A stretch of DNA of 64,000 nt from an uncultured Bacteroidaceae bacterium (GTDB taxonomy: Bacteria; Bacteroidota; Bacteroidia; Bacteroidales; GCA-2748055), in the NCBI GenBank assembly GCA_964426915.1, contig CAYRTD010000003.1, positions 67 through 64,066 of the forward strand. Reading direction: 5' to 3'. The translations under genes and the position numbers were made by a program. Below, in pieces: positions 6,682-61,743 of the stretch. A model generated the notes under the pieces. That model searched no databases, had not been told where the DNA came from, and saw only the letters and a program-made list of their open reading frames with translations. Every line of letters starts with the position of its first letter. The first letter of the stretch is position 1.

Positions 6682-8619
6682 TTAATCAATGTTTATTTCC
6701 GGAAACTCCAGAAGTCTCTTTTTAATTGTTTCTTCCAGAAAGTATATTTCTTCCTTCAAACTATCGTTGTTTTCCATAAATGCACTGAACCTGACAAGTG
6801 AAAGAATGGATTGATAATATTTTAGAGTCTGAATGTCATAGGGATCTTCGTCTGAGATCTGTGTTTTCAAAATATTCTCTTTGAGTTCTTCAAAATACCT
6901 TCTAAAGGCCTCTTTTGCCAAATCGGATTTGTCAGTGGTGTAAAGATTGTCGATGAGAAAAAGATAGTAATAGTTTATCCCTGTACTTTCCGGTGGGTAT
7001 TTATTAATGAAATCAATTATAAGTTCATCCGTTTTATCATGATTACCCATACTCTCATTATGGTAGATCTGAATAAAGCTTGCTTCGAGTATCAGGTTGA
7101 AAATAATGACTCTGCTAAAATATTCTGTATCCGGGATCTCTAGTGTTGTTTTTCTTATCAGGGTATTAAGAGCACCGGTGTCAAAATAATTGTTTTCAAA
7201 TAATACAGCCTGATGATTTTTCTTTTCAATACAATAGTAAAGTCCTTTATCTATAAGGTGATTTACATCTATCATTGACTTAAACCGTGGCTGCATGCCC
7301 TTGCTGAAATACAGCGGACGTTTTCCAATCTGAGCATTGATTATGCTTCTGACAAGAAATTCTGAGGTAGACTGAACGTTGCCCCTGTTGCCGCTACTTA
7401 ATCTCAGGGTGTCAAACAGACCCTCACCGGTGAGATAATCTATATTATAATCTCCATTTGGGATGGTTATTACCGGATTATCTCCTCTAAGCTCCTCAGT
7501 CACGAAAGACGATTCCCGATCAAAAGACAATGACCGGGGGGCATTATCATCAATAAGAATAGTCTTCTTTTCAAGCAAGAATATTTGTTCTTTAGTAAAA
7601 CTGCTTTCCAGTTTATTATCCAAATTGCTATCGTCGGTAATAAGATGGTAATATAAGGGATCGCTCAGGAGTGAAAGATTTATGATCCTGATGTCCTGCC
7701 GGAAATTCTTAATTTCCTGCATCCATAAAAGAGGATAAGTATCATTATCTCCGTTGGTAAATAATATGCCATTTTTTTTCAGAGGTGAAAGGATCTCCCG
7801 GGCATATTTTTCCCAGAATGGCTGGTATAAATGCTGAACATTATGTTCTTCAAGTAATTTCTCCGCTTCTCTTCGGAAACCAAATATGTTCAATTCGAAA
7901 TAATGGTTCATTACTTCATTGGCATATTTTAAATCCATCAGGCCTATAAGGGTTCGGTAACCGGGTGACCTTTCGTACAGGATATGCAAATATCTCAATG
8001 AATTTTCTGCATATTCCAGATATAATTTTGCATCTCTTCTTTCCGCCTGTGTTCCTCTGGCCTGGGATGGATCAGAGTAATGAGAATGTGACCAGAGAAT
8101 ATCGGATGCTTTTTGTGCATAGGCGCGTGCCAGGCCATATAATTCATTGTCGGAAAGAATGGCAGTTTCTTTATTCTCAAGATGAATGATTACATCATCT
8201 GTCCAGCCCTGGTATCCATAAAAGGGATGGGTTGTAAAATCGTAAAGATCCCGGTTGGAAATTAATTCTGTTATAAATACTTCTTTGCTGTTTTTTCCCG
8301 GATCAATATTGGAAGGATAATAATCTGTTGCAGACCAAATCAGGATAGGGTTTTCATTTTTATGTGAAAAATACAACGGCAGAACATGCCAGCCATTTGG
8401 ATCACGGATAAAATTAAAACGGTAAAAATTTTCATTACGATAAGTGTTCAGTTCAAAATTCTGAGCAAATACATTTGCTATCTCTTCCAGATCCGGATAG
8501 GTAAAAGGTTCGGGTTGGTCATTATCCCGGGCCAGCGAAATGAAGGGTAACAATAATAATAGAATAAACCAGGGACATTTTCTTCGTTCCAGATATGATA
8601 ATGTGTGTTTAATGATCAT
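6682..8619 (-). CDS. Hypothetical secreted protein (645 aa)
   Basis: Long uninterrupted ORF with an N-terminal hydrophobic signal (CPWFILLLLLPFISLA). I recognised no catalytic motif. The block ILFTNGDNDTYPLLWMQEIKNFRQDIRIINLSLL resembles, from memory, the soluble domain of DUF2723-type Bacteroidota proteins. Confidence 0.6.
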   Translation of the reverse strand: MIIKHTLSYLERRKCPWFILLLLLPFISLARDNDQPEPFTYPDLEEIANVFAQNFELNTYRNENFYRFNFIRDPNGWHVLPLYFSHKNENPILIWSATDYYPSNIDPGKNSKEVFITELISNRDLYDFTTHPFYGYQGWTDDVIIHLENKETAILSDNELYGLARAYAQKASDILWSHSHYSDPSQARGTQAERRDAKLYLEYAENSLRYLHILYERSPGYRTLIGLMDLKYANEVMNHYFELNIFGFRREAEKLLEEHNVQHLYQPFWEKYAREILSPLKKNGILFTNGDNDTYPLLWMQEIKNFRQDIRIINLSLLSDPLYYHLITDDSNLDNKLESSFTKEQIFLLEKKTILIDDNAPRSLSFDRESSFVTEELRGDNPVITIPNGDYNIDYLTGEGLFDTLRLSSGNRGNVQSTSEFLVRSIINAQIGKRPLYFSKGMQPRFKSMIDVNHLIDKGLYYCIEKKNHQAVLFENNYFDTGALNTLIRKTTLEIPDTEYFSRVIIFNLILEASFIQIYHNESMGNHDKTDELIIDFINKYPPESTGINYYYLFLIDNLYTTDKSDLAKEAFRRYFEELKENILKTQISDEDPYDIQTLKYYQSILSLVRFSAFMENNDSLKEEIYFLEETIKKRLLEFPEINID

Positions 8620-10431: not shown

Positions 10432-10866
10432 TTATCTTTTGTTTTTACTAATCAGATGGTCCAGGCTTATTTTCCCCGATCCGTAAACCATTAGAGTAAA
10501 TAACATAAGGAAGTAATACAAAGGAATTTCAAATCCGTTATTTCCTGCTGCAAAGCCATTACCGATGTGGACTGTGAAAATTGCAACCAGCATAACTATC
10601 ATCAGTGGTATACTTATAAACCTTGTTCCGAATCCGATGAATAACAGAATTGCACCCAGAAATTCGGTAATTCCCGCCAAATATGCATTTATCAGCGGTA
10701 AAGGATAATTCATGCTGGCAAACCATTCAGCAGTACCGCCGAAATCTTTAATTTTATTAAGTCCGGGTTGAAAAAAGCCATAAGCAAGAATTAGCCGTAA
10801 AAAGAGGAGTGGTAGATCCCTTATTTGCTCAACTTTACGAGCGAAATTTTGATAAACGGTACTCAT
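10432..10866 (-). CDS. DoxX-family integral membrane protein (bufD-like position in the MNIO operon)
   Basis: Four predicted TM helices with a DoxX-like pattern (LPLLFLRLILAYGFFQPGLNKI..). The track ORF extends to 10983, but that extension overlaps the upstream gene. The ATG at 10866 (MSTVYQNF..) gives a typical 144-aa DoxX protein. Confidence 0.8.
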   Translation of the reverse strand: MSTVYQNFARKVEQIRDLPLLFLRLILAYGFFQPGLNKIKDFGGTAEWFASMNYPLPLINAYLAGITEFLGAILLFIGFGTRFISIPLMIVMLVAIFTVHIGNGFAAGNNGFEIPLYYFLMLFTLMVYGSGKISLDHLISKNKR

Positions 10867-10894
10867 AATATTTGTTTTTAAGTTTAAAGATATA

Positions 10895-11647
10895 TTAGTT
10901 AACAAAGCCCAGGATGGCTTGTTTATTTTTGAGGTCGGAAATAAAATGTGACAGGTTGGAAATAAGCTTTTTCTCATTCTCAAAACCGAACATGACTTTT
11001 ACCTGGGGTATCAGCTTTTTGACGCTTAACTTCTCTGTTGTTATTTTTTCGTAAACCCATGCATGAAATAGGGAAAGATTAAAGAAATTTACGTTTCCGG
11101 TGTTTTTTTGTCTGCTCACAAGGACAAAATAATTTCCTTCATTTTTTTCAGCATCGACAACATTCATTATGTGAACGGGATAGTTTAACTGGATCAGACG
11201 TGACTCAGGATTGGTTATAAGAATATCTTCCATGATATTGCCTGTTTCATTAAATTCCGGTGATACGATGTCAGGCATGGTATGAACTTCTATTTCGATC
11301 CATTCAAAAAGTAATAGATCGTTCAGCCATAATTTTCCGGTTTTTTTTCGGAAATCCGATTCAAGTGCGTATTCGTAAAATTCATTGGGTAGTTTCCAGA
11401 TCTGCGGGGTTTGAGCTTTATGATTGCTGAAAAAATCATGTACCAGAGCCGTGAATTTTTCTTCACCCATCACTTGTAAAGTTAAGGGATATGCCTGTTT
11501 CATGGTATTTTTAACTACATTGAATACCAACCTGCGATAATGGTGGATCCTGTTTTTATTAATTCCTGGAATTTCCCGAATCTTTCCTGTTCTGCAATAA
11601 ATTCCCAGATTGTTTTGGGCACTAGTTGTTTGTTCCTGAAGCTTCAT
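10895..11647 (-). CDS. DUF2063-family protein (MbnC/BufC-like partner of the MNIO enzyme)
   Basis: 250 aa. The N-terminal block RIHHYRRLVFNVVKNTMKQAYPLT matches the DUF2063 signature (..vYrnnv...l...fP..). It overlaps the DUF692 gene's 3' end by 26 nt, and the DUF692-DUF2063 pairing is canonical. Confidence 0.75.
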   Translation of the reverse strand: MKLQEQTTSAQNNLGIYCRTGKIREIPGINKNRIHHYRRLVFNVVKNTMKQAYPLTLQVMGEEKFTALVHDFFSNHKAQTPQIWKLPNEFYEYALESDFRKKTGKLWLNDLLLFEWIEIEVHTMPDIVSPEFNETGNIMEDILITNPESRLIQLNYPVHIMNVVDAEKNEGNYFVLVSRQKNTGNVNFFNLSLFHAWVYEKITTEKLSVKKLIPQVKVMFGFENEKKLISNLSHFISDLKNKQAILGFVN

Positions 11648-12533
11648 GATGTACCTCCCAGGTATTTTTTGTTATTTCTCTTAGTTTTGATAACTCTGCA
11701 TTTAATGCATCTAATTCATCGAAATTGTAATCTCTTTCTAAAAGTACCGGAACCGGATCCATCTTGCTTACCGTCCAGGCGAAAAGTTCATACACAGGAT
11801 CAATTATTGGCTGGCCGTGTGTATCGATAATCAGATCGGGTTCCACCTGCTCATGTCCTGCCATATGAATATAGGCCACCTTGTCAAGAGGAAGCCCGGA
11901 TATGAAATCATAAGGGTCGTACTTATGGTTAAAACTGTTAACATAGACGTTGTTTACATCCAAAAGCAACTGACAGTCTGCTTCTTTTACAATCTCATTA
12001 ATGAAGTCCAGTTCACTCATTTCAGCTGCTACCGGTGTATAATAGGAGACGATCTCTATGGCAATTTTTCTTTCCAGTATTTCCTGTGCCTGCCTTATTC
12101 TCCCTGCTACATGATAAACCGCATCTTCTTTAAAGGGAATAGGAAGAAGATCGTACATGTGAGCATTCTGACTTTTAGTATAACTTAAATGTTCGGAAAA
12201 AATCTGAACATTGTATTCATTTAGAAATTTTTTTAAATCTCTAAGGAAATTTATATCCAGTTCATCGGGACTTCCTAATGACATAGAAAGACCATGGCAG
12301 GTGGCAGGATATTTTTGTGTAGCTTCATTAAGAATTTTTTTCCAGTAACCACCGATACCCATCCAGTTTTCTGGTGCAAATTCAATAAAATCAGGATTCA
12401 GCCTGTCTGAGTTTATAAGAACATCTGCGATATCCCTTCTGAATCCTATGCCGGTACTTATATTCATAATAATTGTTTTAAAGGAATCCACGTTCGGATA
12501 ACGATCATCAAGATAACACCCATGATCACTCAA
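11622..12533 (-). CDS. DUF692/UPF0276 multinuclear non-heme iron oxidase (MNIO, MbnB/BufB-like RiPP maturase)
   Basis: Conserved DUF692 blocks are all visible: GIGFRRD, FIEFAPENWMG, CHGLSMSLGS, FSEHLSY, IAIEIVSYY, LLLDVNNVYVNSFNH, YIHMAGH, IIDTHGQPI and LLERDYNF, which carry the His/Asp/Glu metal-ligand positions of a TIM barrel. The likely true start is the ATG at 12467 (MNISTGIGFRRD), giving 281 aa. Confidence 0.88.
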   Translation of the reverse strand: MSDHGCYLDDRYPNVDSFKTIIMNISTGIGFRRDIADVLINSDRLNPDFIEFAPENWMGIGGYWKKILNEATQKYPATCHGLSMSLGSPDELDINFLRDLKKFLNEYNVQIFSEHLSYTKSQNAHMYDLLPIPFKEDAVYHVAGRIRQAQEILERKIAIEIVSYYTPVAAEMSELDFINEIVKEADCQLLLDVNNVYVNSFNHKYDPYDFISGLPLDKVAYIHMAGHEQVEPDLIIDTHGQPIIDPVYELFAWTVSKMDPVPVLLERDYNFDELDALNAELSKLREITKNTWEVHHEASGTNN

Positions 12534-12754
12534 CCTTTACTTTTTGGATCACCACCCTTACGTGAATTCCCTGTTTTGCATTTATAGTTAGAAGAAATTG
12601 TAAATTATTTGTCCTGCCTTTGTTAAAAGAGGAACTACATTTAGTGAAATTCCGCTTTCCAGGCAACATTAGTCTTGCTTCCGACCTTTTATTAAGGATC
12701 CAGTCAGGAAAAATCAGTTTTATACTGAGTGCAGACTAATTGGATAACAGATGT

Positions 12755-13207
12755 TTAACCACATTTTCCTTCACCGCATTTTGCTTCGGAAGTTTTTTCT
12801 TCGCTTGTTTTCTTTTCAGATTTCGCTTCTGTTTTTTTGGCTTTCTTTTCTTCTTTACCTTCACCACATTTACCTTCACCACATTTTCCTTCGGAAGTTT
12901 TATTCTCAGCCTTTTTGCCTTCAGCTTTTTTACTCTCTTTTTTTTTGGCTTCTTTTTCACCTTCTCCCTCGCCACATTTACCTTCACCGCATTTTAATTC
13001 ACCGAATTTGTAGGTGGCTTCACTGTTTAGAATATCTGGTGCATTGAGGTTCATGATTGCACTTCTGACTTCTGCTCCAGTTCCCATTGAAGCATAGTTT
13101 GGGAGATCTGCATTCATGTTGCCTGCAGCAAATGCTGAAATTGAAGTTGTTAATGCTGCTCCTGTTATTAATGAAGCTGATTTGAGGATCTTTTTGTCTT
13201 TTTTCAT
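12755..13207 (-). CDS. Sec-signal Cys-repeat RiPP precursor (bufferin/oxazolin-like; three KCGEGKCG doublets)
   Basis: 150 aa. Signal peptide MKKDKKILKSASLITGAALTTSISAFA|AG, followed by a roughly 45-aa region. The only six Cys (73, 78, 109, 114, 144, 149) all lie in K-C-G-E-G-K-C-G doublets separated by Lys/Glu-rich spacers, and the protein ends ..AKCGEGKCG*. It is the first gene of the MNIO operon. Confidence 0.8.
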   Translation of the reverse strand: MKKDKKILKSASLITGAALTTSISAFAAGNMNADLPNYASMGTGAEVRSAIMNLNAPDILNSEATYKFGELKCGEGKCGEGEGEKEAKKKESKKAEGKKAENKTSEGKCGEGKCGEGKEEKKAKKTEAKSEKKTSEEKTSEAKCGEGKCG

Positions 13208-13945: not shown

Positions 13946-14002
13946 AAGCTCTCCACGGATGTAACTATCCGGGTTACTTACAAATTGAAAGCATCCTTCC
14001 GT

Positions 14003-14130
14003 TTGTCCGATATCGGCGTTGCTGCAACCGCGTGTCGCTGAAGCTTTCCGCGAGCGCAGAGCTTCTACGCTCGCGGAAAGCTTCAGCGACAGCGTGCGGA
14101 GGTACAAAATTTTAAATTCTCGAATCCATC
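14003..14130 (+). repeat. GC-rich intergenic repeat element, copy A (perfect 21-bp stem)
   Basis: CGCTGAAGCTTTCCGCGAGCG (14036-14056) and CGCTCGCGGAAAGCTTCAGCG (14068-14088) are exact reverse complements with an 11-nt loop. The 5' module GTCCGATATCGGCGTTGCTGCAACCGCGTGTCGCTGAAGCTTTCCGCGAGCGC and the 3' module CAAAATTTTAAATTCTCGAAT are shared with copy B at 21322-21470. Confidence 0.8.
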
Positions 14131-14278
14131 ACTAAGAATGTTTTGATTTTCAACATCTTCCCTTCTGATCAGAATCACTTTCCCCCGATTAAATCTTTAT
14201 ATTGTTCATAATAAAGAGCACATGAAATGACGGACTTAAGTTCATTTTCATTTGCAAGAAAAATAAAGTTTTGTTCCC

Positions 14279-19523: not shown

Positions 19524-21320
19524 ATGAAAACACCAGAAAAACATTCCTCCAGATTTTATCAATCCAATCCAAAAATCGGTATTCGTCCGGCAATTGATGG
19601 TCGCCGTAGAGGTGTGAGAGAATCACTTGAGGATCAAACCATGAAAATGGCACAAAATGCGGCCCGCTTCCTTGAAGATAATTTAAGGCATCCGGATGGA
19701 ACCAAGGTAGAATGTGTGATTGCCGACCAGTGTATTGGAGGGGTAGCCGAATCTGCTGCTACGGCTGAAAAATTCAGCCGGGAAGGAGTTGGGGTTTCTC
19801 TCACGGTAACTCCCTGCTGGTGTTACGGTACAGAGACCATTGATATGGATCCTCACCTTCCAAAAGCAATCTGGGGCTTTAATGGCACGGAACGGCCGGG
19901 TGCAGTGTACCTTGCCGCTGCTCTCGCGGGTCATTCTCAAAAGGGTATTCCTGCTTTTGGGATCTATGGGCGTGATGTTCAGGATTCAGGAGATGAAACA
20001 ATTCCTGCTGATGTGCAGGATAAGCTGTTGATGTTTGCCAAAGCCGGACTGGCATTTGCCTCAATGAAGGGAAAGTCTTACCTTTCAATGGGTTCGGTTT
20101 CAATGGGGATTGCTGGTTCTGTGGTTGATGATCATTTTTTTCAGGAATACCTGGGCATGAGAAACGAATATGTGGATATGAGTGAGATCATCAGGCGGAT
20201 AGATGAAGAAATATATGATAAGGAAGAGTTTAATAAAGCTCTGAAATGGACAAGGGAAAATTGCCGTGAGGGTAAGGATGTAAATAATGAAGATCAGCAA
20301 AAAACCAGGGATGAAAAAGATAAAGAATGGGAGTTTGTAGTAAAAATGACACTGATCGCAAGGGATCTGATGATAGGCAATCCGGAGCTTGAGAAGCTCG
20401 GCTTTGGCGAAGAAGCAATGGGACATAACGCCCTTATTGCCGGTTTTCAGGGTCAGCGGCAATGGACAGATCATTTTCCCAATGGAGACTTTATGGAAGC
20501 GATTCTGAATTCTTCATTTGACTGGAATGGTATACGTCAGCCATTCCTGCTGGCTACGGAAAATGATAGTTTGAACGGAGTTGCCATGATGTTTGGTCAT
20601 TTGCTAAGCAACACCGCTCAGGTTTTTGCAGATGTGCGAACTTACTGGAGTCCGTCTGCCGTTAAAAGAGTTACCGGCTGGAAGCCGGAAGGCCTGGCTG
20701 AAAGCGGTTTTATCCACCTTATTAATTCAGGTTCAGCATCTCTTGATGGTTCAGGAAGAGAAACGGAGGATGGCAAACCTGCTATGAAACCTTTCTGGGA
20801 AATTACAGAAAAAGAGATGGAAGCATGTCTGGAAGCAACTACCTGGCATCCGGCAGTGACTGAGTATTTTCGTGGAGGTGGATTTTCATCTTCATTTAAA
20901 ACTCCCGGCGGGATGCCTGTTACACTTTGCAGAATAAATCTTATTCAGGGCCTCGGACCGGCATTGCAGATTGCAGAAGGCTATTCTGCCGAATTACCGG
21001 AGGAGGTACATAATATTCTTGATGAAAGAACAAATGAAACGTGGCCTACTACCTGGTTTGTACCAATTATCAATGGTAAAGGTGCTTTCAGAGATGTTTA
21101 TTCTGTAATGGCAAACTGGGGTGCAAATCACGGATCATTTGGCTATGGCCATTTCGGAGATAAACTGATTACCCTCGCCTCCATGTTGAGAATACCCGTA
21201 TGCATGCACAATGTTGAAGAAGACAGAATATTCAGACCTTCGGCATGGAGTGCTTTTGGAATGGATACTGAGGGCAGCGATTACCGGGCTTGTCAGGTTT
21301 ATGGCCCTGTTTATAAGTAG
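19524..21320 (+). CDS. fucI: L-fucose isomerase
   Basis: 598 aa. The N-terminus [25 protein letters not shown] and overall length are typical of FucI, and the protein appears collinear with FucI along its whole length. Confidence 0.9.
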
Positions 21321-21321
21321 A

Positions 21322-21470
21322 GTCTGTCCATAATGTCCGATATCTGCGTTGCTGCAACCGCGTGTCGCTGAAGCTTTCCGCGAGCGCTGAAGCTACTCTG
21401 CGCTGCGCCTTCAGGCAAGCTTTTGGCGGCCGAAGGGAGGCACAAAATTTTAAATCCTCGAATACACCAT
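21322..21470 (+). repeat. GC-rich intergenic repeat element, copy B (preceded by the GTCTGTCCATAATGTCCGATATC motif)
   Basis: Shares an almost identical roughly 55-nt 5' module (GTCCGATATCTGCGTTGCTGCAACCGCGTGTCGCTGAAGCTTTCCGCGAGCGC) and a 3' module (GGCACAAAATTTTAAATCCTCGAAT) with copy A. The centre has diverged. Confidence 0.75.
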
Positions 21471-21482
21471 AAGTTCTGCCGG

Positions 21483-31526: not shown

Positions 31527-31632
31527 ATTTAATTGAAAGTATCCAAAATTCTTTTCGATTTATTTCTCCAAATATAAAGAATCATATTTACTTCTGCTTT
31601 GAGGGATTTGAAAATATCACTTTTTATCTATT

Positions 31633-31688
31633 GTGCAGTTGTGCAGTTGTGCAGTTGTGCAGTTGTGCAGTTGTGCGGTTGTGCAGTT
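31633..31688. repeat. Tandem 8-bp repeat (GTGCAGTT) x7
   Basis: Seven head-to-tail copies, one of them a variant (GTGCGGTT). Located in the amidohydrolase upstream region, directly abutting the inverted-repeat element at 31691. Confidence 0.95.
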
Positions 31689-31690
31689 AT

Positions 31691-31766
31691 GTCTGTCCAT
31701 AATGTCAGTGAGACTATGATTTTGGTTTTTCAAAATCATTTAGTCGAACTGACATTATGGACAGAC
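31691..31766. repeat. 76-bp hairpin element with 18-bp perfect terminal inverted repeats (GTCTGTCCATAATGTCAG); MITE-like or REP-like
   Basis: Left arm 31691-31708 is the exact reverse complement of right arm 31749-31766. An inner 9-bp inverted repeat ATGATTTTG/CAAAATCAT is also present. The arm sequence recurs as single copies after several stop codons elsewhere in the window. Confidence 0.8.
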
Positions 31767-31818
31767 ACTAATTTGGAAACTCTTATCTTTAAAAAAAAAT
31801 AATCGCAATCCGAAATGT

Positions 31819-39861: not shown

Positions 39862-39958
39862 TTCAACCTCTCTAAGGGGGTGCCTTATAAATACGGGCTG
39901 AGATCATACCCTTAGAACCTGATCCGGGTAATTCCGGCGAAGGGAAATTTGGAGAAAT
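39862..39958 (+). promoter_or_regulatory. TPP (thiamine pyrophosphate) riboswitch, THI element
   Basis: The sequence GGGGTGCC..GGGCTGAGATCATACCCTTAGAACCTGATCCGGGTAATTCCGGCGAAGGGAA carries the conserved GGGGUGC, CUGAGA, ACCCUU.GAACCUGAUC.GG.UAAU.CC.GCG.AGGGA cores of the TPP aptamer. It ends about 35 nt before the TonB-receptor start. Boundaries are approximate. Confidence 0.85.
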
Positions 39959-39990
39959 CAATTGAAACACACTTTTAAATCTATTTAATT

Positions 39991-42417
39991 ATGTACAGAA
40001 CTGTAATGGTGTCTGTAATGTCATTATTTATGGCATTGCAACTATACGGACAATATTCGTTTTCCGGGAAAGTAACAGATGAAGATGGAAAGGCACTTAT
40101 CGGCGCCAATATTTCATTTACGGACAATTATCTTGGTACGATAACCGATAAAAATGGTGATTTTATTTTTAAAAATATCAGGAAGGGTACTTATGAACTT
40201 CAGGTTTCTTATGTGGGTTATAAAACCTTGACCACTACCCTCAGTATTGAAAAGCATATTACCCGGACATTTACACTTGAAAGATCACCCTATCTTGTTG
40301 AAGAGGTAATTGTGAGAGGATTACGTGCTGGTTATAACGACCCCGTTACTTCAGAAACATTGAACCGGGAGTACATAGAGAAGAGAAATATTATGAAGGA
40401 CATTCCCTTTATTTTAAAGCATAGCCCTTCCATGGTCACAAGTTCGGATGCAGGACACAGCGTGGGTTATACCAGCTTTAGAATAAGGGGGACAGATGCC
40501 AACCGGATTAATATAACCGTTGACGGAGTTCCTTTGAATGATGCAGAATCTCATGGCGTCTGGTGGGTAAATATGCCCGATTTTGCATCCTCGGTGGAAA
40601 ATGTTCAGATTCAGCGTGGTGTTGGAACATCTACTAATGGTTCTGCAGCTTTTGGCGCAAGCTTAAACTTCAGGACCAATGAACTGAGAAATGAGGCGTA
40701 TGCCGATGCCAATTCAGCCTACGGTAGTTTTAATACAAGAAAGAACTCTCTTAATGTAGGTTCCGGAATGATCAATGATAAATTATCTTTTGATCTGAGA
40801 CTATCGGAAATGCACAGCGATGGATATATTGAAAGGGCAGAGGCCGATCTGCAGTCTATGTTTCTGTCTGCCGGACATTACAGTGAAAAAACCATCCTGA
40901 AGTTCAACATGATGATGGGAAATGAAAAGACCTATCAGGCCTGGGATGGTGTGCCGGGCTATATGCTTGAAGAAAACAGGCGTTATAACGGCATAGGCAT
41001 GTATACCGACGAAGATGGGGAGGTTCATTATTATGATAATGAAACTGATAATTACCGCCAGGATCATTATCATCTTCATTTTTCTCAGGAGCTTAGTCCT
41101 GTTCTTTGGTTCAATTCCACTGTTCATTATACCAAAGGGCGAGGGTATTATGAACAATATAAGGAAGAAGAATCATTGAAAGATTATCTTCTCCCTGAAA
41201 TTGTCATAGGTGACAGTATTATTACAAGTACCGACCTCATCAGGCAAAAGTGGCTTGACAATGATTATTACGGAGCAGTGATGTCACTGAACCTAAAAGA
41301 AGAAAATTTCGATCTGAATGTAGGAGGTGGTATAAACCATTATATCGGAGATCATTTCGGAGAGGTGATATGGTCACGCTATGCAGGAGTTTCAGAAATC
41401 CGCCACCGTTGGTACGAGAATACAGGATATAAAAAGGATTATAATATCTACACCAAAATCAACTACAGATTGAGGAACAATATTCACCTGTTTACCGATC
41501 TGCAGTTAAGAGGAATAAATTATAATATTGAAGGTGTGGACGATGATTTGAGAGATATTGGGCAGGAACATGATTTCTTCTTTTTTAATCCGAAATTCGG
41601 ACTCAATTACCGGCCGGATAACAAACAACGTATGTATTTTTCCTTTGCTGTGGCAAATCGTGAACCAAACCGGACAAATTTTGTGGATGCTGATCCGAAT
41701 CAACCTTTACCTGTGCATGAAACGCTCTTTGATTATGAACTGGGTTACGAGATCAGCGAAAGGAATTTCCGTTCAAATGTAAATTTCTATTATATGGATT
41801 ACCGTGATCAGCTTGTTCTTACAGGTGAGATTAATGATGTAGGTTCTGCTATAATGACAAATGTGGATAATAGTTACAGACTTGGGATTGAAATTGCAGC
41901 CGGTATAAGATTGAATAATTCTATACGCTGGGAGGGGAACCTTACACTCAGCAAGAACAGAATCAGGAATATGGTCAGTTTTCTTGATAATTGGGATTAC
42001 TGGAGTGATACAACAGGAACACAAAATATACAGATCAGGGAAGAACATGGAGATACAGACATTGCATTTTCTCCAGAAATTGTAGCTTCCAGCATTTTCA
42101 GGTATAGTCTTCTGGAAGGGATGGAAATCAGTCTTCAAACCAAATATGTGGGTAAGCAATATATAGATAATACGGAATCTGAAGACCGGAAACTGGACCC
42201 CTGGCTGATAAATGATCTTTTGATAGACTACCGGATCCCTGTACGCTTTGCCAGGGAATTCAGTATCAATATGCTGATAGCCAATATTACCGATCATAAG
42301 TATGAATCCAACGCATGGGTATACAGGTATTATTATCAGGGGAATGAGCAGGCTATCAATGGTTTTTATCCCCAGGCGGGAATTCATTTTATGGCTGGAA
42401 TTAAGATTGGCTTCTAA
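39991..42417 (+). CDS. TonB-dependent outer-membrane receptor with a CarboxypepD_reg-like N-terminal domain (riboswitch-controlled, probable thiamine or precursor uptake)
   Basis: 808 aa. N-terminal domain FSGKVTDEDGKALIGANISF..GTYELQVSYVGYKT, plug domain (FRIRGTDANRINITVDGVPLND), and a beta-barrel ending with an aromatic C-terminus (..GIKIGF). Confidence 0.88.
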   Translation: MYRTVMVSVMSLFMALQLYGQYSFSGKVTDEDGKALIGANISFTDNYLGTITDKNGDFIFKNIRKGTYELQVSYVGYKTLTTTLSIEKHITRTFTLERSPYLVEEVIVRGLRAGYNDPVTSETLNREYIEKRNIMKDIPFILKHSPSMVTSSDAGHSVGYTSFRIRGTDANRINITVDGVPLNDAESHGVWWVNMPDFASSVENVQIQRGVGTSTNGSAAFGASLNFRTNELRNEAYADANSAYGSFNTRKNSLNVGSGMINDKLSFDLRLSEMHSDGYIERAEADLQSMFLSAGHYSEKTILKFNMMMGNEKTYQAWDGVPGYMLEENRRYNGIGMYTDEDGEVHYYDNETDNYRQDHYHLHFSQELSPVLWFNSTVHYTKGRGYYEQYKEEESLKDYLLPEIVIGDSIITSTDLIRQKWLDNDYYGAVMSLNLKEENFDLNVGGGINHYIGDHFGEVIWSRYAGVSEIRHRWYENTGYKKDYNIYTKINYRLRNNIHLFTDLQLRGINYNIEGVDDDLRDIGQEHDFFFFNPKFGLNYRPDNKQRMYFSFAVANREPNRTNFVDADPNQPLPVHETLFDYELGYEISERNFRSNVNFYYMDYRDQLVLTGEINDVGSAIMTNVDNSYRLGIEIAAGIRLNNSIRWEGNLTLSKNRIRNMVSFLDNWDYWSDTTGTQNIQIREEHGDTDIAFSPEIVASSIFRYSLLEGMEISLQTKYVGKQYIDNTESEDRKLDPWLINDLLIDYRIPVRFAREFSINMLIANITDHKYESNAWVYRYYYQGNEQAINGFYPQAGIHFMAGIKIGF

Positions 42418-58611: not shown

Positions 58612-59577
58612 TTACCACATCATCCATTGAGAAATACCATGAAACCCTCTTAGGAAATCGGTTACAGGCATACGTTTTTTTCCTGCAAGCTGAAGTTCCC
58701 GAATTTCTATATAGCCATCTGCAACGGCAACTTTCATATAAGATTTTTCGTCTGAGATGATTTTTCCGGGCTCATACCCGTGATTTTCTTTTTGAAATTC
58801 TGATCCCAGTATTTTTACCTGCAACGTCGGCTCTCCTTCTTTGTTTATTGTAGAGAATGCAGCAGGATAGGGGCTTAATCCCCGTATAAGATTGTGAACT
58901 TTTTCACCCTTTTCCGCCCAGTTAATTCTGCAATCTTCCTTGAAGATTTTCGGAGCTTTTTTCAGTCCTTTATTTTCCTGAAACTCCGGCTGAGGTTGAG
59001 CTTGTACCGATTCATCCGCAATGGCCCTGACAGTTTTTAAGACCAGTTCCGAACCTTTTGCCATCATCCGATCATGCAATTCTCCGGCAGTTTCATTTTT
59101 CCCTATTTTCATTTTTTCCTGAAAAATAATCTCCCCGGTATCGATTTTTTCGTCGATAAAGAAAGTGGTGAGTCCGGTTTCTTCCTCTCCGTTTATAATT
59201 GCATGGTTAATGGGAGCTGCCCCCCTGTATTGGGGAAGTAAAGAGGCATGCAGGTTAAATGTTCCCTTTTCCGGGATCGACCATAGTTCTTCTGGCATCA
59301 TCCGGAAAGCTACTACTACCTGTATGTCGGGTTTAAACCTCATTAACTTTTGAAGAAACTCCTCATCCTTAAGTTTAATTGGTTGTAAGACCGGGATGTT
59401 GTGATCCTCTGCATATTTCTTTACAGGTGAAGGGGTTATTTTTTTTCCTCTTCCGGCAGGCTTATCCGGAGCTGTTACCACACACACTACCTGATATCCG
59501 TTTTTAACCAGGTGGTTAAGGGGAGCTACTGCGAATTCCGGGGTTCCGAGGAATATTATTCTGGGGGAGGTGGGCAT
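58612..59577 (-). CDS. fmt: Methionyl-tRNA formyltransferase
   Basis: 321 aa with motifs IIFLGTPEFAV, HASLLPQYRGAAPI and GLTTFFIDEKIDTGEII. Confidence 0.93.
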   Translation of the reverse strand: MPTSPRIIFLGTPEFAVAPLNHLVKNGYQVVCVVTAPDKPAGRGKKITPSPVKKYAEDHNIPVLQPIKLKDEEFLQKLMRFKPDIQVVVAFRMMPEELWSIPEKGTFNLHASLLPQYRGAAPINHAIINGEEETGLTTFFIDEKIDTGEIIFQEKMKIGKNETAGELHDRMMAKGSELVLKTVRAIADESVQAQPQPEFQENKGLKKAPKIFKEDCRINWAEKGEKVHNLIRGLSPYPAAFSTINKEGEPTLQVKILGSEFQKENHGYEPGKIISDEKSYMKVAVADGYIEIRELQLAGKKRMPVTDFLRGFHGISQWMMW

Positions 59578-59578
59578 G

Positions 59579-59763
59579 TTGGTTTATGGGTTTATGGGTT
59601 TATGGGTTTATGGGTTTATAGGTTTATTGGTTTATGGGTTTATAGGTTTATTGGTTTATGGGTTTATTGGTTTATGGGTTTATTGGTTTATGGGTTTATA
59701 GGTTTATAGGTTTATGGGTTTATAGGTTTATGGGTTTATTGGTTTATAAGTTTATGGGTTTAC
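59579..59763. repeat. Tandem 8-bp repeat (NGGTTTAT) of about 23 copies, starting 2 nt from the fmt start codon
   Basis: Head-to-tail GGGTTTAT/AGGTTTAT/TGGTTTAT units run from 59579 to about 59763. Variation is almost entirely in the first base. The track ORFs translating GLWVYGFM.. are artefacts of this array. Confidence 0.95.
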
Positions 59764-60039
59764 GGTTACTGAGGTTTACCGATCACCCATTCCACGGGTT
59801 ACCACCTTTAAGTGTTCGAAACCTTAAAGTTGACAATCCGGTAATGCAATTCCAAGCCCCAAGGGGCATACGCGTCAACTTAAGACCCCTTCGTCTGTTT
59901 TTTTAAAGCCTTACAATACGAGTTGGCAATGCCTCAGGAACCAGAGCCTCAGTGAGGATATAATCCAGCGCCCTATAATGGTTTTTGAATGAGGGAATTC
60001 TGAGCGTTGTGCCTCATATAAAGCTTTAGATCTGATTGA

Positions 60040-60197
60040 AAGGAGAGAGAGGTTTCTCCATCGAGTATTTTGCCAATGGCAAAACACTCTCCGTACTAAT
60101 GACAAGTTTAATTATCAGGAAGATAATTAAACTTGTCATTAGTACGGAGACGCCGGAGCGATAGCGTAGGCTTCGACGGAGAAACCTCTCTCTCCTT
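60040..60197. repeat. Nested near-perfect palindrome (25-bp outer arms, 29-bp inner arms)
   Basis: Outer arms are AAGGAGAGAGAGGTTTCTCCATCGA (60040-60064) and TCGACGGAGAAACCTCTCTCTCCTT (60173-60197), with 1 mismatch. Inner arms are TCTCCGTACTAATGACAAGTTTAATTATC (60088-60116) and its exact reverse complement (60122-60150), with a 5-nt loop. A small palindrome TTTTGCCA-A-TGGCAAAA lies at 60068-60084. Confidence 0.9.
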
Positions 60198-60272
60198 CAA
60201 ATCCGAAAATGCTCATCCGAAACATCGCATCAATAACACTCAAAAGCGCCACCCATGGCTATTCTAGTTTAA

Positions 60273-60380
60273 CCCCTGCGCCTCCGCTGAGGCCTTCGCC
60301 ATGCGCCTACGCTGTAGCTTCAGCGCAAGCGTAAGGCTTCTGCCGCCGGAGAAAGCTTCTGCGGCACGCGGTGTCGGGGT
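60273..60380 (-). repeat. GC-rich intergenic repeat element, copy C (inverted orientation, diverged)
   Basis: The reverse complement reads CCGCGTGCCGCAGAAGCTTTCTCCGG..GCGCTGAAGCTACAGCG.., alignable with CCGCGTGTCGCTGAAGCTTTCCGCGAGCGCTGAAGCTAC in copies A and B. It is strongly GC-rich relative to its surroundings. Confidence 0.6.
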
Positions 60381-60401
60381 TAGTGTTACCAACTGACGTC
60401 A

Positions 60402-60497
60402 CACCGATCACCGATCACCGGTCACCGATCACCGATCACCGATCACCGATCACCGATCACCGATCACCGATCACCGATTACCGATCACCGATCACCG
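60402..60497. repeat. Tandem 7-bp repeat (CACCGAT) of about 14 copies, ending 1-2 nt from the ribBA stop codon
   Basis: Head-to-tail CACCGAT units with variants CACCGGT and TACCGAT. The array abuts the TAA (60499-60501 on the + strand) of ribBA. Confidence 0.95.
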
Positions 60498-60498
60498 T

Positions 60499-61743
60499 TT
60501 ATCCTTCCTTCTCCTCCTTCCCCTTATAGCTCACTATATTCAAAAAATGCCCCATCTTGTCCCTTTTGGTTTCCATATAGAACTTGTTGTATTTATTTGC
60601 GGGTATTTCAAGAGGAACATTTTTCGTTACTTTTATTCCATAGCCCTCCAGTCCTTTTCTCTTTATGGGATTATTCGTTATGAGCCTGATCTTTCCAAGT
60701 CCGAGTGCATGCATCATACTGGCACCAATTCCGTAATCACGTTCATCTTCATTGAACCCAAGTTCAATATTAGCCTGAACCGTATCCAATCCTTTCTCCT
60801 GTAATTTATATGCCCTTATTTTATTATAGAGTCCGATTCCCCGCCCCTCCTGGTTGAGGTAAATTATTACTCCTTTCCCTTCTTCATTTATCATCCGCAT
60901 GGCTTCATGGAGCTGCTCACCACAATCACAACGATGTGAGCCGAAAATATCACCGGTCACACAGCTTGAATGAACCCTGACAAGCACCGGTTCATCTTTT
61001 TCCCACTCTCCTTTGATAAGAGCTACATGTTCAAGCCCGTTGGATTTTTGAATAAATGGAATAAGATGAAAGTGACCGTATTCAGTAGGAAGGTCAACTT
61101 CTTCACCCTTTATAATTATACTTTCCGAACTAAGCCTGTGTGCAATAAGATCCTGTATGCTAATGATTTTCAGATCAAATTTCTCTGCAATTTTTACCAG
61201 TTCGGGAAGACGTGCCATTGAACCGTCTTCATTCATGACCTCGACAAGGGTGCCCGAGGGTTTAAAACCCGCAAGACGGGCCAGATCAACCGCTGCTTCC
61301 GTATGACCTGCCCTGCGAAGAACACCATTTCTTTTTGCCCTTAAGGGAAAAATATGTCCGGGTCTTCCCAGATCTTCAGGATTCGTATTGTTATCGATAA
61401 GTGCCTTAATGGTTTTTGCCCTGTCGGAAGCAGAAATGCCTGTTGTGCATCCATGACCCAACAGGTCTACCGATACGGTAAAAGCTGTGGTATTTGAGCT
61501 GGTGTTCTCGCGAACCATCATTTCCAGCTCAAGCTCACGGCACCTTTCTTCAGTAAGAGAAACACATATTAGTCCACGGCCATGTGTGGCCATGAAATTA
61601 ACCATTTTAGTGGTAATGGCTTCCGAGGCACAGATAAAGTCTCCTTCATTTTCCCTATCTTCGTCGTCGACAACGACAACTGCTTTACCTTTTTTAATAT
61701 CTTCTATTGCTTCTTTTATGTTATTCAATTTGAATTTCTCCAC
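60499..61743 (-). CDS. ribBA: Bifunctional 3,4-dihydroxy-2-butanone-4-phosphate synthase / GTP cyclohydrolase II
   Basis: 414 aa. RibB part: [14 protein letters not shown] and [14 protein letters not shown]. RibA part: [21 protein letters not shown] and EGRGIGL. Confidence 0.95.

Follow-up and report, generated by a model that had tools for sequence, protein, structure and literature searches.

Repetitive DNA between bacterial genes includes several described kinds, among them the short tandemly repeated repetitive (STRR) heptamers of cyanobacteria, the repetitive extragenic palindromes (REP) and bacterial interspersed mosaic elements (BIMEs) of Proteobacteria, and miniature inverted-repeat transposable elements (MITEs) such as the Neisseria Correia elements, RUP and ERIC. 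Here we describe the spacer between ribBA and fmt in a 64,000-nt stretch of DNA (the window) from an uncultured Bacteroidaceae bacterium (GenBank assembly GCA_964426915.1, contig CAYRTD010000003.1), in which two tandem arrays, comparable to the intergenic STRR heptamers, enclose a segment rich in palindromes. The arrays and the enclosed segment looked unusual but belonged to known kinds of bacterial repeat DNA; the array units were new and occurred in a new clade, and the notable feature was that two arrays fill the orthologous stop-to-start interval across several species. The region is probably a spacer between cistrons of the gene string GT4-GT2-ribBA-fmt, made of two layers of differing age. 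Comparison of gene order splits this odd repetitive gap into apparently old, conserved microsatellites and what appears to be a young insertion specific to the lineage. The relatives used for comparison were loci of Fmt homologues at 56-73% identity, labeled L003 (from the sister genome GCA_964528675), L006, L009, L012, L014 and L015.

Long simple sequence repeats (LSSRs), which are intergenic arrays of 5-11-nt units, are a described class in prokaryotes (PMC4679880). In Beggiatoaceae, Cyanobacteria and five Bacteroidetes, arrays of the heptamer TAACTGA directly adjoin start codons; in some cases close relatives share the neighboring genes and have shorter spacers without repeats, and in some cases contigs end inside the arrays (MacGregor 2015, PMC4679880). 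Both ribBA-fmt arrays had the traits of LSSRs: head-to-tail units of 7-8 nt in far greater copy number than expected by chance, an intergenic position right before a start codon or after a stop codon (in LSSRs, units that are not a multiple of three long keep to non-coding DNA), and a lineage rich in arrays (a further 8-mer array in the window at 31631-31688; others in L003, L006, L009 and L015). As with LSSRs, stop codons occurred in all forward frames (TGA in CGGTGAT, TAA in NATAAACC), relatives with the same neighboring genes had shorter spacers, and assemblies broke at the arrays. LSSRs have been suggested to act in translation, which is yet to be demonstrated, and the same holds here. Unlike the TAACTGA repeats, the units at this locus were CGGTRAN and NNNTAAAC. 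Further differences from LSSRs were that two differing arrays abut, fill the whole interval from stop to start and persist at one orthologous site across species, and that the units in sister genomes differed widely by locus, with no single dispersed unit family. The GGGNATC heptamers of Xanthomonas and Nostoc lie after stop codons between co-directional genes and are mostly transcribed (Rehm et al. 2015, PMC4692102). Unlike these repeats, which prefer four units and are marked by G-tracts and G-quadruplexes, CGGTGAT lacks a G3 tract and is predicted to form a hairpin containing G-U pairs.

Arrays shared with sister species

The gap between ribBA and fmt measured 921 bp and was the largest of the 44 gaps between the 45 main open reading frames (ORFs) of the window (median 99.5 bp; second largest 367 bp), in agreement with a preliminary description of this DNA, made from the letters alone, which had called the spacer far longer than usual. 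The 8-mer array, the 7-mer array, the palindrome and the GC-rich element copy that it had listed were all recovered where it had placed them, using Tandem Repeats Finder (TRF), an inverted-repeat finder and nhmmer (Table 1). The fmt ATG was at 59575-59577, and the N-terminus of the protein (MPTSPRIIFLGTPEF) agreed with the starts of the relatives' proteins; the ribBA stop codon was at 60499-60501.

The order GT4-GT2-ribBA-spacer-fmt was kept in L003, L006, L009, L012, L014 and L015, and a LysM/glucosaminidase gene followed fmt in every relative locus that reached that far. Because the relatives had no gene between ribBA and fmt, the site does not hold the conserved protein-coding gene that the preliminary description had set against its own reading. 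In the Fmt tree, L015 and L003 grouped together and were joined in turn by L009, the window and L006, with L012 and L014 outside. In the sister clade (L003, L015 and L009; Fmt identity 71-73%) the spacers measured 187 bp, 172 bp and about 590-630 bp, respectively, and consisted entirely of two abutting arrays. The first was (CGGTRAN)n, starting from the ribBA stop, and the second was (NNNTAAAC/NNNTCAAC)n, ending a few bases before the fmt ATG. The ribBA TGA stop of L003 and L009 belonged to the first CGGTRAN unit. The spacer of L006 was 260 bp long and had a GAAAC-type 8-mer array upstream of fmt, the 7-mer array being absent. The outgroup spacers were 72 bp in L012 and 0 bp in L014, where TAG was followed directly by ATG. 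The two-array layout was common to the window and the sister clade and was not present in the outgroups, and the 8-mer unit drifted between lineages from TAAAC to TCAAC to GAAAC. Both arrays therefore appear to be ancestral, shared with the sister species and older than the insertion described below. The degenerate 7-mer units at 59764-59812 can be aligned to the place where the two arrays meet in L003, L015 and L009, and appear to be a part of the 7-mer array that was stranded on the fmt side of the insertion.

The 8-mer array stopped 5 nt short of the fmt ATG. Its sense-strand units were CATAAACC (10 copies), TATAAACC (6), AATAAACC (5) and CATAAACT (1); at the sole variable position all 22 units had C, T or A, with no G. 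The sense strand contained a single G in 186 nt and no AUG, and its predicted folding energy was 0.0 kcal/mol versus -27.1 kcal/mol for the antisense strand. The same strand asymmetry was observed in the homologous 8-mer arrays of L003, L015, L009 and L006 and in a (CTCCAAA)n array before cdd of L003; in every lineage, arrays preceding start codons folded on the antisense strand and had sense energies of between 0 and -0.06 kcal/mol per nt. In Bacteroidetes, translation initiation depends on a weakly structured mRNA with A at -3 and few nearby AUGs, and not on Shine-Dalgarno (SD) pairing (PMC6847099). The fmt gene had A at -3 and -6, and the leaders (-40 to -1) of 32 window ORFs starting with ATG had on average 42% A and 11.6% G, compared with 29% A and 20% G overall. 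This composition fits the published mode of initiation, and the 8-mer array is an exaggerated form of the general A-rich, G-poor leader composition in the window.

Only 1 nt separated the 7-mer array from the ribBA stop codon. The sense strand, (CGGUGAU)n, was predicted to fold with -53.2 kcal/mol (z = -7.2) through self-pairing that uses G-U pairs, and the antisense strand with -21.1 kcal/mol. The four arrays found after ribBA stop codons had sense energies of -0.26 to -0.55 kcal/mol per nt versus -0.05 to -0.22 for antisense. A role of (GGUGAUC)n as an extended SD mimic, complementary to GAUCACC of the 16S 3' tail, was considered and rejected, because GATC was not kept in relatives (CGGTAAT, CGGTGAA) and because Bacteroidia ribosomes, in the account outlined in PMC7797042, sequester the anti-SD.

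Arrays of this kind were also observed elsewhere in the compared genomes. In sister genomes, 7-9-mer arrays occupied a large share of spacers (L009 1582-1707; L003 1183-1251, 7229-7281 and 8027-8071; L015 4316-4442; L006 9858-9968), with units that varied among CGGTGAA, GAGACCATA, CTCCAAA, ACTGCCT, GACTGGAGC, CTTTCAG and TAAACCTA. The outgroup loci L012 and L014 had none. The clade as a whole seems prone to expansion of simple sequence repeats (SSRs), and this uncultured group of Bacteroidales is one more of the few bacterial groups known to have many intergenic arrays with units of 7-9 nt. At L003 4876-4881 and L009 5353-5368 the 7-mer array extended into ribBA, the last codons (..SEER*, ..SGER*) and TGA being array units, so that slippage could alter the RibBA C-terminus.

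A palindrome-rich segment inside the 7-mer array

Array sequence flanked the unique middle segment of the spacer on both sides, which argues for an insertion and not a deletion. The simplest history would be that about 590 bp inserted into the 7-mer array in this lineage alone. The preliminary description had suggested a mobile element bounded by microsatellites, and comparison of the fmt-ribBA interval with relatives bore this out in part. The central ~590 bp appears to be a lineage-specific insertion inside the 7-mer array; this inserted DNA carries one member of a dispersed GC-rich family and a palindrome with terminal inverted repeats (TIRs) at its ends. However, the microsatellites are not the boundaries of the element; they appear older and are present in the sister species, where they adjoin each other. 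The lack of conservation that the description had named as telling against its reading was found for the middle part and not for the arrays.

When compared by blastn, the middle segment gave only matches of at most 10 nt to the relatives' spacers, only GC-rich element matches to the remaining window, and none to plasmid and phage collections. No tRNA or tmRNA was detected in the scan, and none of the spacer ORFs of at least 37 aa matched Pfam or NCBIfam. The 64-aa ORF at 59911-60105, which had been called featureless, lies on the minus strand; it matched no Pfam or NCBIfam family, and public gene calls do not list it. The short hairpins noted around 59805-59880, followed by a run of seven T, folded no better than shuffled sequences (z = 0.12), and no terminator-like sites were found on either strand despite the T run.

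The nested palindrome had a predicted fold of -98.9 kcal/mol (z = -20.7 versus shuffles). Its 22-nt GC-rich piece belongs to an inverted repeat (I3) pairing 60151-60171 with 60305-60325 at 81%, which suggests that the palindrome interior consists of nested fragments of repeat elements, one of them related to the GC-rich element copy C. Homologues were sought with exact patterns of 20-22 nt (the two palindrome arms and the GC-element core) and by comparing the complete middle segment with plasmids and phages in blastn. The exact 20-mer of the outer arm in 185,579 GTDB species-representative genomes, and that of the inner arm in JGI metagenomes and IMG/VR (collections that do not contain the window's own genome), gave only single-arm chance matches in unrelated coding DNA. 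A second copy of the palindrome, for which the preliminary description had proposed looking, was found neither in the 64-kb window nor in these exact-arm scans. Like MITEs, the palindrome (158-176 bp) is a short, non-coding, intergenic unit with inverted terminal arms of 25-34 nt, lies at a probably transcribed site, and belongs to a segment that is entirely missing at the orthologous sites of relatives. Unlike MITEs, it had no recognizable target-site duplication (the flanks, ..TTTAGA| and |AAATGC.., contain no direct repeat) and no second copy in the window. We know of no parent insertion sequence for the nested palindrome.

Each arm of the inner palindrome opened with ATGACAAG, and short hydrophobic peptides were encoded on both strands, MTSLIIFLIIKLVIS... 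(60026-60139, minus) and MTSLIIRKIIKLVIS... (60099-60164, plus). The palindrome makes the peptide near-identical on both strands, and the peptides are probably its by-product. A type I toxin, considered for the minus-strand peptide, has a very low probability, and no family matched.

The GC-rich element occurred three times in 64 kb. Copy C was opposite in orientation to copies A (13986-14139) and B (21316-21477). Copies A and B were 96% identical over 57 nt, with the AT-rich 3' end GGAGGYACAAAATTTTAAAT... in both, and copy C was about 70-80% similar over short cores. All three copies were in sense orientation a short way 3' of a gene, namely a DUF2141 gene, a fucose isomerase gene and ribBA; copies A and B came directly after the stop codon. 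Copy A folded as a near-perfect 28-bp stem (z = -7.1), copy C had z = -2.9, and copy B (z = +1.05) was not above shuffles. The family was absent from the relatives' loci by nhmmer, and the GC-element core pattern had no matches in IMG/VR. Like REP/BIME sequences, the element is an imperfect GC-rich hairpin that is dispersed, strictly extragenic and placed 3' of genes or between cistrons, with fragments nested or inverted close together. Unlike them, it is longer (~130-170 nt) and has conserved AT-rich ends, and no REP-associated tyrosine transposase (RAYT) was seen among the 20 window proteins scanned. Its behavior is REP-like, including the dispersed extragenic palindromes at gene 3' ends, while the insertion as a whole resembles REP/BIME and MITE DNA but shows only part of their defining features.

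Table 1. Positions of the genes, arrays and repeat elements in and around the ribBA-fmt spacer.
Feature	Positions	Strand	Description
fmt (methionyl-tRNA formyltransferase), downstream cistron	58612..59577	-	321-aa ORF; Pfam Formyl_trans_N and Formyl_trans_C
8-mer array, sense unit NATAAACC, 22-23 copies	59581..59762	-	TRF GGTTTATG x22.8, 89% matches, score 280
Apparent ancestral 7-mer/8-mer junction	59764..59812	-	degenerate 7-mer units (..GGTGATCGGTAAACCTCAGTAACCGTAAACC); aligns with array junction of L003, L015 and L009
Putative non-coding insertion, ~590 bp, this genome only	59813..60401	.	boundaries +/-15 bp; missing from relatives' spacers
Nested palindrome, 176 bp	60031..60206	.	inverted-repeat finder
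Outer arms of palindrome	60031-60064 / 60173-60206		34 nt, 88%; perfect 20-nt core 60040-60059 / 60178-60197
Small hairpin inside palindrome	60068-60084
Inner arms of palindrome	60088-60116 / 60122-60150		29 nt, 100%, 5-nt loop
GC-rich piece inside palindrome, 22 nt	60151-60172		part of inverted repeat I3
GC-rich element copy C	60227..60398	-	blastn and MAFFT versus copies A and B; nhmmer E = 9e-30
7-mer array, sense unit CGGTGAT, 13 copies	60402..60497	-	TRF CACCGAT x13.7, 95% matches, score 178
ribBA (DHBP synthase / GTP cyclohydrolase II), upstream cistron	60499..61743	-	414-aa ORF; Pfam DHBP_synthase and GTP_cyclohydro2

Other palindromic repeats were observed in the window and in L003. 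The 16-mer GTCTGTCCATAATGTC (at most 3 mismatches) occurred six times in the window versus 0.4 expected (10314, 15938, 21322, 31691 on the plus and 31766 on the minus strand, and 58591). Five of the six were located 2-53 nt past a stop codon in sense orientation, mostly after TAG(T/A); the sixth (31691, plus) was the opposite arm of the palindrome at 31690-31767. The 16-mer makes up the 5' flank of GC-rich copy B and both arms of that palindrome, and it was not found in any relative's locus; possibly it marks the end of the members of a small family, mobile and palindromic or REP-like, that is restricted to this genome. The region 31631-31767, between two minus-strand genes, is a small-scale copy of the array and nested-palindrome architecture: an 8-mer array (31631-31688, sense CTGCACAA, x7.2) adjoins a 78-bp nested palindrome (31690-31767) with 27-nt arms (93%), an inner 9-bp hairpin and a fold of -46.5 kcal/mol (z = -13). 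In L003, two GC-rich hairpin elements of 43 nt, perfectly complementary to each other and 648 nt apart (7159-7201 and 7850-7892), stood on either side of cdd. One of them was followed directly by 8-mer and (CTCCAMA)n arrays; these arrays had no counterpart in the LysM-cdd spacer of the window, which could otherwise be aligned. The segment between the inverted elements could be invertible, or the two elements could be REP-like copies.

Preferred reading and its alternatives

According to the reading we prefer, the comparison with relatives shows two steps. Replication slippage in an ancestor shared with the sister clade widened a tight ribBA-fmt junction into two abutting LSSR arrays. Later, and in no lineage but this one, the 7-mer array received about 590 bp of palindrome-rich non-coding DNA, a composite of a REP-like GC-rich copy and the 176-bp TIR-bounded nested palindrome with its putative GC-element fragment. 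The Bacteroidetes -7 box TAnnTTTG, or a near-variant, was not present on the sense strand of the spacer, and the sister spacers were purely arrays without room for a promoter, so fmt is probably co-transcribed with ribBA. The spacer would most likely be carried in the ribBA-fmt mRNA. In this transcript, the 8-mer array may act as an unstructured leader for independent initiation of fmt by ribosomes that ignore SD sequences, and folding models predict that the 7-mer array RNA would form a long imperfect hairpin right after the ribBA stop. For the insertion, the likeliest status is that of a passenger, selfish or neutral, in a spacer that tolerates it; in the transcript, the perfect duplex of 29 bp could plausibly serve as an RNase III or stability element.

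It is also possible, though in our view unlikely, that the whole spacer is neutral repeat DNA, with slippage regenerating the arrays, mutational bias or seeding from purine-rich gene ends setting their composition, and no function for arrays or insertion. Such a history agrees with the many 7-9-mer arrays of unrelated units in other spacers of the sister genomes, with the drift of the unit sequences, and with outgroups that function with a spacer of 0-72 bp. However, arrays of one unit class have survived at the same position in species with only 71-73% Fmt identity, arrays abutting start codons are consistently G-poor and unstructured on the sense strand only, and the variable unit position lacks G. 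A gene for a non-coding RNA (ncRNA), either a small or a large one with the nested palindrome as its core, would account for the very strong predicted structure (z of about -11 on each strand for a 638-nt segment, and far lower for the palindrome), and the preliminary description had proposed a structured ncRNA locus; we consider it very improbable. The segment folded equally stably on both strands, as DNA palindromes do, and thus offers no evidence for a strand-specific RNA. In 59400-60700 the best Rfam 15 match, to a hairpin model of a plant miRNA, reached 40 bits where the threshold is 83, and the sub-threshold matches in the spacer were all to generic plant and animal miRNA hairpin models, which recognize the long perfect stem. 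No intrinsic terminators were found on either strand of 59300-60800 (1.9 expected), and the sigma-70 promoter scan, with a consensus that is not relevant to Bacteroidetes, returned only hexamers inside the palindrome. Homologues of the structured part were not found in the relatives' loci, with exact 20-22-nt patterns in the genome, metagenome and viral collections, or with blastn in the plasmid and phage collections, and the perfect 29-bp arms show none of the compensatory drift expected of an old RNA.

Tandem repeats between stop and start codons could also form a phase-variable contingency locus, in which array copy number switches or tunes the expression of fmt or ribBA. There is precedent for this in Moraxella and Haemophilus, where SSRs in the 5' untranslated region tune expression, as outlined in PMC4679880 and PMC12721329, and, like the AGAT repeat of Moraxella uspA2 and the Haemophilus SSRs, the repeat here lies between transcription start and start codon. 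Nonetheless, we give phase variation very little credence. Unlike in those systems, the flanking genes are housekeeping genes and not surface or virulence genes, and the arrays are imperfect (89% and 95% matches), so that slippage is damped. The 78-300 nt upstream of fmt were identical in six of six comparisons of the same strain from different samples (a small sample of assemblies), showing no copy-number variation, and the arrays lie beyond the coding frames. The preliminary description had also offered a recombination or regulatory hotspot as a possibility; the identity of the arrays between samples speaks against rapid phase variation. Hardly credible at all is an assembly artefact, by which the middle would have been spliced in from another array-flanked locus during short-read assembly. 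The source is a metagenome-assembled genome (MAG), unitigs of the same sample in Logan (SRR15425352) ended exactly at the arrays, one 7-mer unit was present at more than one locus in L009 (1582-1707, 5353-5512), and there was an N-gap within an L009 array. The fmt-side junction, however, had only about two clean units of the 7-mer (14 nt) before unique sequence began, too little to send a k-mer assembler astray; typical reads are longer than the 7-mer array of 96 bp, and independent unitigs matched the window at both gene edges. A chimeric join at the insert is unlikely.

Several points weigh against the two-layer reading with its co-transcribed spacer. We infer co-transcription and every role at the RNA level. 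The compared lineages share descent, so that the recurrence of the strand polarity is not independent evidence from each, and a bias in mutation or slippage could yield such polarity without selection. Other SSR arrays of the relatives have varied units, and those away from start codons were not G-poor. The palindrome had neither a target-site duplication nor a second copy, its own genome being covered over 64 kb only, and a Pfam scan of 20 window proteins showed no RAYT or transposase. Because arrays break short-read assemblies, array lengths in a MAG are untrustworthy and may be collapsed, as the N-gap in the L009 array illustrates.

A more far-reaching and distinctly doubtful proposal is that arrays built by slippage were selected and kept as modular intercistronic devices in Bacteroidia that ignore SD sequences. 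If so, a G-free, AUG-free and structure-free array would be a landing pad for de novo initiation of the downstream cistron, and a G/U-rich self-pairing array past the upstream stop would be an insulator or stabilizer. Replication slippage would be both builder and tuner of translation-initiation regions, and the signature would be the orthologous retention of both arrays despite saturated synonymous divergence. The orthologous spacers of 0, 72, 172, 187, 260, ~600 and 921 bp form a natural series on unstructured leaders in non-SD bacteria.

Other features of the window

When the whole 64-kb window was scanned with Rfam 15, only a thiamine pyrophosphate (TPP) riboswitch was above its gathering threshold (39866-39964, plus; 67.3 bits versus 54.3), upstream of an 808-aa ORF at 39991-42417. 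At 10432-13207 on the minus strand, genes for DoxX (10432-10983), DUF2063 (10895-11647) and an MbnB/TglH/ChrH enzyme (11622-12533) were found together with a 150-aa signal-peptide protein (12755-13207, minus). The C-terminal half of this protein was a tandem repeat of KCGEGKCGEG, with a DNA repeat of 105-108 nt (TRF, 12758-12995). These genes may form a bufferin/MbnB-type gene cluster for a ribosomally synthesized and post-translationally modified peptide (RiPP).

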